Positions 55,101 through 58,100 of a DNA stretch of 64,000 nt are shown piece after piece. How positions within the stretch are numbered: position 1 is the stretch's first letter; each line of letters starts with the position of its first letter. Position numbers: made by a program. Source of the DNA: Escherichia coli (lineage in GTDB: Bacteria; Pseudomonadota; Gammaproteobacteria; Enterobacterales; Enterobacteriaceae); NCBI RefSeq assembly GCF_003018255.1, contig NZ_CP027440.1; one strand, 5' to 3'.

Positions 55101-58100
55101 GCAGTTTCGCCAGCTTCGCGGAGGTATCAGAGATGCACAGCATAATGCGGCGCAGCTGGCTGCGCTGACTCACGCTTAACGGCTCGTAACTTTCCATATT
55201 GCCTGGCAGCATCGTTTTAACGCGCGCAATCGCATCAAAGGTATTTGCCGGATGACAGTGAAACTCCGTTACTTGCGTGCCATCAGTCGATGCCGCAGGC
55301 AATGGAGGTTCCATCGCAATCAACTTCTGCGGCAGTTCAGGATGCTGTTGCAGGTAGTGTTCGAAGTTGGTGACGGCATCGCGGGTACGGGTAATTTCAT
55401 AGCCGGACGCGTTCATATTGACGACGAAGCCAGCAGGGGCAATCCCCACCAGTACCAGCATCACCAGGCCGATCCCTTTCTGCCCGTCGTTAGCGCCGTG
55501 CGAAAACGCCACGCCCGCAGCGGAAACAATCAGCGCAATACGCGTCCAGAATGGTGGCTTACGTTTGCCTTTTTTCTTTTTGCGATCTTCCGGAATGCGG
55601 TGAATACGGTCACGCTTTTTCGTCCCGCTCCAGAAACGGCGCAGCAGGAAAATCAGACCACCCGCAATGACCAGGCCGACGATAGGGGAAACAATCAGCG
55701 AGGAGAAAATTTTGGTCACTTCACGCAGGTTTAACGCATCCATCACCGATGAGCCGGTTAACAGCGCGTTGGTTAAACCGATGCCGATAATCGCACCAAT
55801 CAAGGTGTGCGAACTGGAGGCCGGTAAACCAAAGAACCACGTTCCCAGGTTCCAGATAATCGCGGCCAGCAGCATGGAAAAGACCATCGCCAGGCCGTGA
55901 GTTGACCCCATATTCAGCAACAAATCGGTTGGTAACATATGGACAATGGCATAGGCAACGCTAAGTCCGCCTAGCAATACGCCAAAAAAGTTAAAAAATG
56001 CCGCCATCACCACGGCAAGCTGTGGCTGCATGGCTCGAGTATAAATAACGGTTGCCACCGCATTCGCCGTGTCATGAAAACCATTGATTGCTTCGTAGAA
56101 CAACACAAATGCCAGAGCAAGTAATAACAAAAGCCCTGTGTATATATCAAGGCCAACAAATAAATTTAGCATATATTAGATTACGCCATTTTGAATTTAC
56201 GAACGGAGGCATTATCAGTGACTTTCACGGCGTGGGCAAAGTGAAATATCATTTTTTAACGATAAAAAGCGTGTTATTTCTTGTGTATCAGACAATAAGC
56301 CTTCATTCAAAACCTTTAAAAATAATCAAAACACAGGTATTCCACTTGTTAATATATTCATATATGAAATGAATAAATATTGAAATATATAAATATTGAA
56401 TATTTTGATTAATCCCCGTACTGATTATTCTTCATAATCAGTACGGGGTTGCTACAACATGTATTACTCTTTCACCACAATTAACGGTTCAATATCACTC
56501 TCTTTTTTGATGACCAGTGATTCATCACCGCGCAAACACGTCCCACCGTAGTTGCCGCCAACGGTGAAAGTACATACCTGAATGTATTTACCGTCCACTT
56601 TCGGCAAACACCACAGTTGCTGATAGATGTTTTTCTGCTCGGCAAATTTACCGCTGGTTTTGTCCAGCACCTCTTCATGATGGCTGACGAGGTCGATGTT
56701 ACTGCCACAGCGACCGGCGATCGGTTTAACGGCATAACCGGTTTTCACCAGCTCATCATTCACGGTGAAGTCAGTATCCAACAGATAACGATGGTGCGGG
56801 AACAGAGACCAGAGGATCGGCAGAATCGCTTTGTTACCGGGGATCACCGTCCATAGCGGCTCAAAAACCAACACTTCCGGGCGTAACAGAACGTCTATCA
56901 GACGAACTTCATTTTGTGGATGCCCGGTACGGATCGGCACTGCGGCAAATTCACGGTCGCTCACTTCGCGGATTTGATCAAATGCCGTTTCCCACGCCCA
57001 GGTTTTCCATACGCAGTTAACCAGTCGCCCTTCCCCATCAATCAGTTGCCCGGCAGCATCCCAGCCCAGTTCATCCAACCCACGCAAGATACGCGTTTCA
57101 AAGCCCGCCTGGTGCAGCGCCTGCTCCATAAACTGCGCGTGATAGTTTTCCTCGATATCTTTGTCCTGCATGATATGGACAAACGGACGTGCACGACTGT
57201 GTTTCCACGCGCCAGCCAGTTCGTTAATCAGTCCTTCCGCAGGATTGAAGCCGTTGCCTTTATAGCCCTGCTCCGCCCAACGTTCGAGGATCAAGCCCGC
57301 TTCGGTATGACAGGAGGCAGAATCGGCGTTGTATTCGTAGACTTTCAGGCCACGTTCATCCATGCAGAAATCCATACGACCAGTGATCATATGATGACGG
57401 CGACGCTGCCAGGAGAGACGCAAACGTGGCCAGAGGATTTTCGGAATGTCAAACAGCGCCAGCAGGTTGTCATCTTTCAGCACCTTGTCGGTGGCGTGAA
57501 GATACATCAGGTGCAGCTCGTTGGTGGCTTTAATCAGCTCCTGCTCGGCACTCTCGGTAATGGTGTAGTAATGATACGGATCCTGATTGATCACCTGGCC
57601 GTTGGCCTGTACATAGGCGTTTTGCAGCGGATCTTTTTCATCCAGCCATTTACCGTCAAACTGGCCTTTGTTTTCCAGACGCGCCCCGCTGATTTTCAGC
57701 AGTTCGCCTGCAATTTCCGGCTGTGGCAAGCTGTATTCGGTATCTTCCGTCTGGATCATCCAGCCCAGAATAGTGGTGTCATCGAAGGTGTCTTTCAGGG
57801 TATAGCCGCCGTTTTCGACCACCATCTCCAGCTCGCGTGTCCACTGTTGCCCTTGCGGCAACGGGGTATGAATCACGTTCTGTTCCGCAATACGGACTTT
57901 GTTGCCATGCAATTGGGTAATGATGGCGACATGGCCAGTGTCTTTAAATTCACCGCCTTTATCCCAGATAAGAAGCGCCCCCGCTACCGGTGCACGCGGC
58001 GAACCGTTAGGAAATGCCTGCAATGGCAGGATGTTGTCATTGACCACTTCACGCAGGAAGCGCAGTGAGAAAATCTCCCATGCCATACCCACGTCAGTGA

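Follow-up and report, generated by a model that had tools for sequence, protein, structure and literature searches.

The question raised by this locus is what a perfect 15-bp inverted repeat and a group of AT-rich direct repeats are doing in the short spacer between gss, which encodes glutathionylspermidine synthetase/amidase, and pitB. The window that we analyzed is a stretch of 64,000 nucleotides from an E. coli strain other than K-12, and its coordinates are those of MG1655 minus 3,080,199 (gss, for instance, is found at 3136663-3138522 on the MG1655 map). The first-pass annotation of this DNA had suggested that the inverted repeat may be a protein-binding site or an RNA-stability element, and not a canonical terminator, and that the direct repeats might be operators for pitB, PhoB boxes among them. 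Both genes are on the minus strand, with gss upstream of pitB, and the features discussed below are as follows:

54673-56172, minus strand: pitB coding sequence (ORF list, RefSeq annotation and MG1655 map)
56173-56463: pitB-gss spacer, 291 nt, 29.6% GC
56173-56249, minus strand: block homologous to the region upstream of pitA, likely to hold the pitB core promoter and 5' UTR (promoter scan and homology)
56239-56234 and 56216-56211, minus strand: -35 (TTGCCC) and -10 (GATAAT) elements of the likely pitB core promoter (promoter scan)
56250-56299, minus strand: block conserved in Escherichia and not derived from pitA (84% identity, four lineages)
56340-56413, strand unassigned: AT-rich tract with a 12-nt direct repeat (about 14% GC, poorly conserved)
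56414-56448, minus strand: predicted 3' stem-loop of the gss mRNA, with 15 perfect pairs, a GAAGA loop and no U-tract
56449-56463, minus strand: 15-nt gap between the gss stop and the hairpin (sequence and alignments)
56464-58323, minus strand: gss coding sequence (ORF list and RefSeq annotation of matching E. coli records)
56466-56464, minus strand: gss stop codon, TAA

Of 5426 complete E. coli genomes, 5414 contained a match, 90-99.5% identical, to a 421-nt region around the hairpin and repeats, and in those 5414 genomes the matches lay invariably between pitB and gss. Among the related loci that we compared, pitB directly follows gss in Escherichia only, and our literature search found no paper mentioning pitB together with gss. 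pitB is annotated as a pseudogene in O157:H7 (truncated) and in strain C 237-04 (frameshifted), which fits a dispensable, normally silent gene.

The inverted repeat is just as perfect as originally described: its two arms (56414-56428 and 56434-56448) are each 15 nt long and 100% complementary, and they enclose a 5-nt loop that reads TCTTC on the plus strand and GAAGA on the minus strand. No perfect inverted repeat with a loop of 3-10 nt is longer anywhere in the window, and by our own estimate only about 5e-4 such repeats would be expected by chance per 64 kb. The hairpin RNA alone folds at -24.8 kcal/mol, with six G-C pairs in the stem, four of them at its base, and in the gss sense this stable, G-C-containing stem-loop starts 15 nt past the gss TAA. 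Folded in context, it gave z-scores of -5.8 (gss sense) and -6.2 (plus strand) against dinucleotide shuffles, and none of 200 shuffles folded as well. The next-longest perfect inverted repeats in the window lie at 11668-11703 (AAAAAAACGGGTC...GACCCGTTTTTTT), which resembles a bidirectional intrinsic terminator, and at 32166-32196 (AAGCCGGATGAT...ATCATCCGGCTT).

Membership in a known family was considered and set aside. The exact 49-mer containing the hairpin is present, in single copy, in 4050 of the 5426 E. coli genomes, and the median number of hairpin copies per genome is one (5394 genomes); because it is single copy, the hairpin is not a REP element, and REP and other repeat families were ruled out on the same ground. 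No Rfam family reached its gathering threshold when the region was searched at a permissive E-value, and the best match, rli38 (35.4 bits against a threshold of 49), is spurious, as its alignment rests on AT-rich sequence with the terminator stem of the model deleted.

The hairpin has been kept as a hairpin while its sequence has changed. We gathered alleles from 51 metagenome contigs, from complete genomes of E. coli and from four further lineages of Escherichia, E. albertii and E. whittamii included. Over the 14 distinct alleles, 96.2% of stem cells are paired, compared with only 29-46% in a control in which the partner was slid by 1-3 columns. Compensatory double changes occur at 3 of the 15 stem pairs, and five further pairs are altered on one side alone, always to G·U; the remaining mismatches, in more distant species, are confined to the loop-closing pair and the outer two pairs, and one metagenome contig has a singleton U·U mismatch. 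The covariation score is 0.160 as against 0.117 +/- 0.012 in shuffles (0 of 500 reached 0.160), although these shuffles ignore relatedness and the score is to be taken as support and not as a probability. More telling, in our judgment, is a nested series of alleles: the perfect stem (4050 complete genomes), a U·G at one pair (strain E400634), a C-G at that same pair (116 genomes), the C-G with a further pair mismatched as C·A (42 genomes) and the C-G with that further pair restored to U-A (25 genomes). The O157-type allele, carried by 552 genomes, has two G·U pairs. The pairs have thus been maintained by compensatory and wobble substitutions, as they would be in a conserved RNA structure.

The same substitutions bear on the strand. 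Six of the seven single transitions produce G·U in gss-sense RNA, where they would produce A·C on the plus strand; the seventh, found in the allele of 42 genomes, goes in the opposite direction and gives C·A in the gss sense. This 6:1 asymmetry (one-sided p of about 0.06) appears suggestive and not absolute, and since one transition of the seven goes the opposite way, the strand assignment is likewise suggestive but not decisive. Because the pairing is kept, compensatory changes are present and the bias toward G·U is that of gss-sense RNA, we take the hairpin to be an RNA structure belonging to gss; the comparison of alleles shows a structure selected for pairing at the RNA level. Of the two functions first offered for it, then, an RNA-stability element is favored by the compensatory pairs and the G·U bias. 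The protein-binding site finds no such support, both because a DNA palindrome gives no reason for a G·U bias on one strand and because the element goes with gss and not with pitB.

What the hairpin lacks is a U-tract. The tail that follows it in the gss sense (AUUAAUCA) has 3 U in 8, short of the approximately five or more U in 8 of a canonical intrinsic terminator, and a terminator scan left the hairpin uncalled on both strands. The corresponding 8 nt hold just 1-2 U in the remaining Escherichia lineages, E. whittamii and E. albertii among them, so that a U-tract is missing from our strain and from every Escherichia species that we looked at; without one, the hairpin is not a canonical intrinsic terminator, and on this point the initial description holds.

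Relatives outside the genus suggest where such a structure came from. In three Citrobacter loci (L012, L013 and L020) a hairpin (CCCCGT...CGGGG) occupies the homologous position, its spacer, left arm (CCCCGT.CTG) and right arm (CGGGG) can be aligned with those of Escherichia, and in the Citrobacter that have this homologous hairpin pitB is absent from the gss locus. The tails following the Citrobacter hairpin are TTGTAT, TTTTAA or TTATTT, whereas those in Escherichia are ATTAAT, AAAATC or AGCATG; within Escherichia the stem is conserved, with no such constraint on the tail. Textbook terminators are found in the same place at the orthologous gss loci of Enterobacter, Lelliottia and several Citrobacter. 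A strict stem-plus-tail rule found canonical terminators after gss at 20 or more of 79 related loci, and more are visible by eye; an automatic count of the most stable hairpin plus following T residues took U-tracts into A/U-extended stems at these 79 loci and therefore undercounted canonical terminators. The best hairpin in the first 100 nt or so after gss was at -12.5 kcal/mol or better in 78 of 78 related loci, a figure that stands without a random control. These alignments show that the hairpin is older than the arrival of pitB at the gss locus, and the simplest reading is that an ancestral gss terminator hairpin lost its T-rich tail, or had it replaced, in Escherichia, the lineage that gained pitB.

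A precedent for a stem without a U-tract comes from Rho-dependent transcripts of E. coli, which end at stable stem-loops lacking a U-tract, with C in excess of G downstream; termination itself occurs diffusely further downstream, and PNPase and RNase II then trim the transcript back to the protective stem-loop (Dar and Sorek, 2018; PMC6061677). Since no Escherichia has a U-tract here, the gss hairpin fits the group of 3' stem-loops without U-tracts at the ends of mRNAs whose termination is weak or due to Rho, and it is most likely a further member of this already known class. The sequence downstream of it in the gss sense is G-poor and rich in U and A: its first 40 nt hold 3 C but no G, and its first 80 nt hold 8 C and 5 G. 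C itself amounts to just 8-10%, and because the tract is C-poor as well as G-poor it is not a textbook rut site. We consider the AT-rich tract a candidate zone for Rho loading or termination, or for nucleoid-protein binding, and its AT-richness may be relevant to the action of Rho.

Our preferred account, which we hold to be probable although well short of certain, is that the gss mRNA ends in a stem-loop encoded by the inverted repeat, that this end is made by Rho and trimming, and that the direct repeats are a duplication within the spacer. RNA polymerase would pass the hairpin and terminate, most likely, in the G-poor, unstructured AT-rich tract downstream, being released there either through Rho or by inefficient intrinsic release; 3'-5' exonucleases would then trim the gss transcript back to the hairpin, which would both set and stabilize the gss 3' end and limit read-through into pitB. 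The AT-rich repeats would be a local 16-nt duplication in a weakly constrained spacer and no specific operator, and the pitB promoter would lie further downstream, within the block duplicated from pitA. For MG1655 3,135,000-3,138,999, Adams et al. (2021) give no 3' end and no Rho-dependent region in their Term-seq and bicyclomycin tables, which appear not to cover the locus, a gap that most likely reflects low expression and neither supports nor refutes this account; the TERMITe supplements contain no match for the locus.

Three other explanations of the hairpin deserve to be weighed against this one. It could be a self-sufficient, non-canonical intrinsic terminator in which a stable stem and the partial AUUAAU tail suffice without Rho. 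Its position matches that of the canonical terminators after gss in other Enterobacteriaceae, the homologous Citrobacter hairpin has a T-rich tail and the stem is very stable and closed by four G-C pairs; a strong hairpin with four G-C pairs at its base, followed by AUU, might still bring about partial intrinsic termination. The poverty of the tail (3 U in 8 here and 1-2 in other Escherichia), the absence of a call in the consensus scan and the conservation of the stem while the tail varies freely all speak against self-sufficiency, which we regard as rather unlikely; with the U-rich tail of the Citrobacter type absent from Escherichia, the hairpin alone would be a poor intrinsic terminator. 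If the palindrome instead acted as DNA, whether as a protein-binding site, a recombination site or the remnant of a mobile element, its perfection over 15 bp could in principle suit a dimeric protein, and IS1 has inserted inside it in several strains. Yet it is present once per genome, no repeat feature is annotated in the MG1655 spacer and no Rfam or repeat family matches it; it is conserved throughout the genus, with a positional homologue directly after gss in Citrobacter, and its substitutions favor G·U in one strand, so that a role as DNA seems to us exceedingly improbable. There is also a slim chance that the hairpin is a cis-regulatory RNA, either a dock for a protein that binds 3' ends (such as ProQ) or a gate for conditional read-through. 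As a gate, it would couple expression of the silent pitB to transcription of gss, and a cis-regulatory role would explain why the genus has kept a perfect U-less stem at the junction where pitB was inserted.

We return to the preferred account for the AT-rich tract and its repeats. The direct repeats reported in the first-pass annotation are present: ATAAATATTGAA occurs exactly twice (56373-56384 and 56389-56400), 16 nt apart, within a tandem-like unit of about 16 nt that is 88% identical. About 1% of dinucleotide shuffles of this tract, with its 14% GC, nevertheless yield an exact repeat of 12 nt, so the repeat is real but just modestly above chance, and the small inverted repeats in the tract are at chance level (72-82% of shuffles do as well). 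GC content is 13.7% over 56340-56412, as against about 53% in the flanking genes. Identity in the repeat tract and the next 40 nt, the least conserved part of the spacer, is 60-64% over four Escherichia lineages and just 82-83% even when four E. coli strains are compared; the sequence drifts but stays AT-rich. Strain C 237-04 (L088, 372-470) has a far more diverged allele of the tract between near-identical flanks, which suggests recombination or fast turnover confined to the tract. IS1 prefers AT-rich targets, and it has inserted repeatedly in the pitB-gss spacer (L006, 3280-3290; L089, 1550-1560; L005, 2291-2999; L134): it lies within the left arm of the hairpin (CCCCG|IS1) in strain 15.03CC and one metagenome contig and within the right arm in strain 360D-1, and in two strains pitB was deleted along with the insertion.

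Are the repeats operators for a specific regulator of pitB, such as PhoB or ArgR? The Pho box consists of two CTGTCAT-like direct repeats with 11-bp spacing near the -35. We compared the matches to 20 transcription-factor consensus sequences with those in dinucleotide shuffles. For the Pho-box consensus nothing was found within three mismatches in the whole window, and the best match in the spacer has 7 of 18 positions mismatched, a fit equaled by 98% of shuffles. PhoB ChIP-seq and RNA-seq likewise showed neither binding nor regulation at pitB (PMC10294691). The sole standout among the 20 motifs tried is AATGAATAAATATTGAAA at 56368-56385, which has one mismatch to an ARG-box consensus, a fit that 0 of 500 shuffles equaled; together with the repeat itself, at about 1% of shuffles, it is what can be said for an operator. 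An ArgR operator is made of two 18-bp ARG boxes about 3 bp apart, and by inspection of the sequence there is no second box at the required spacing; the site is also strain-specific, being degraded in K-12 (ATTGG) and in O157. The missing partner and this lack of conservation speak against an ArgR operator. The tract that holds the repeats, moreover, lies about 130-200 nt upstream of the likely pitB transcription start and is 64% identical among the four Escherichia lineages where the promoter-proximal block is 96% identical. The suggestion that the repeats serve as operators, PhoB boxes in particular, is not supported, and we think a specific operator of any kind highly unlikely. Since they are poorly conserved and show no Pho box, no PhoB binding and no supported motif, the repeats have the look of a duplication that arose locally in AT-rich DNA under weak constraint.

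A further reading, compatible with our preferred account, would let the repeats matter as AT-rich DNA alone: the tract may be a candidate region for the binding or nucleation of a nucleoid-associated protein (H-NS, for example) that helps to silence pitB. According to a published report, the pitB locus is an extended protein occupancy domain that is transcriptionally silent and in which an inserted lac promoter is silenced too (PMC4191405), and because of this report the AT-richness may matter for silencing by nucleoid proteins. A tract of about 14% GC amid genes of about 53%, the AT-richness retained despite sequence drift and the repeated insertion of IS1 here are all in keeping with such a role. 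The best match to the 10-bp H-NS motif is, however, no better than those found in shuffles, and we treat this silencing role as a tentative possibility.

If not the repeats, the sequences that control pitB are more probably found nearer the gene. The 77 nt adjoining pitB (56173-56249) are 96% conserved over the four Escherichia lineages, and a 196-nt alignment to the region upstream of pitA (MG1655 pitA, L094), at 81% identity, runs from 56249 into the coding sequence; homology to the pitA upstream region ends at 56249. The only sigma-70-like promoter match on the minus strand, TTGCCC-17-GATAAT at 56239-56211, falls inside this block, so that the pitB core promoter is likely to lie within the pitA-derived 77 nt, and the shared upstream homology implies that the pitA core promoter and 5' UTR were copied together with the gene when pitB arose by duplication. 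A peak for the RpoS holoenzyme was seen by genomic SELEX (in vitro) in the pitB-gsp spacer (PMC5493296); by coordinate conversion it falls near the predicted promoter, at low resolution. Immediately upstream, 56250-56299 (CTTATTGTCTGATAC..AAGAAATAACAC.CTTTTTATCG) shows 84% identity, much above its surroundings, and does not come from pitA; it is to our mind a better candidate than the repeats for regulation specific to pitB. In the leader there is no clear Shine-Dalgarno sequence before pitB. A mini-ORF of two codons (ATG GCG TAA; 56181-56189, minus strand) lies 8 nt ahead of the pitB start; it does not vary among the Escherichia species, and the pitA leader has conserved it as well.

Taken together, gss gains a defined 3' structural element with population-level evidence of selected RNA pairing, and the locus offers what appears to be a case in nature of a terminator hairpin losing its U-tract, but not its stem, as pitB arrived downstream. 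Terminators have been proposed to switch class through changed U content (Dar and Sorek, 2018; PMC6061677), and loss of the U-tract here fits this proposed evolutionary switching between intrinsic and Rho-dependent termination. For pitB, the AT-rich repeats and PhoB can be dropped as likely regulators, and attention moves to the pitA-derived promoter block and to 56250-56299. Beyond annotation the significance is small, the hairpin being an ordinary one.

Several known systems resemble parts of this spacer. Like a Pho box, it is located upstream of a gene for a phosphate transporter, formerly counted in the pho regulon, but it has no sequence match, and PhoB binding and regulation were undetected at pitB (PMC10294691). 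Like REP and BIME elements, the hairpin is an extragenic palindrome at the 3' end of a gene and of a kind that can block exonucleases; unlike them, it is single copy and specific to the gss locus, and it is not annotated as a REP. Canonical intrinsic terminators have the same position after the stop codon and a hairpin closed by G-C pairs, and the gss hairpin differs from them in having 3 U in 8 and an unusually long, perfect stem with an A/U-rich upper half. The closest counterparts are the U-less stem-loops of Dar and Sorek (2018; PMC6061677): the tract downstream of gss is A/U-rich where theirs is C-rich, and Rho action and trimming are putative for gss, but both are stable, lie directly after the gene, have no U-tract and a G-poor sequence downstream, and share the energetics of intrinsic terminator hairpins.
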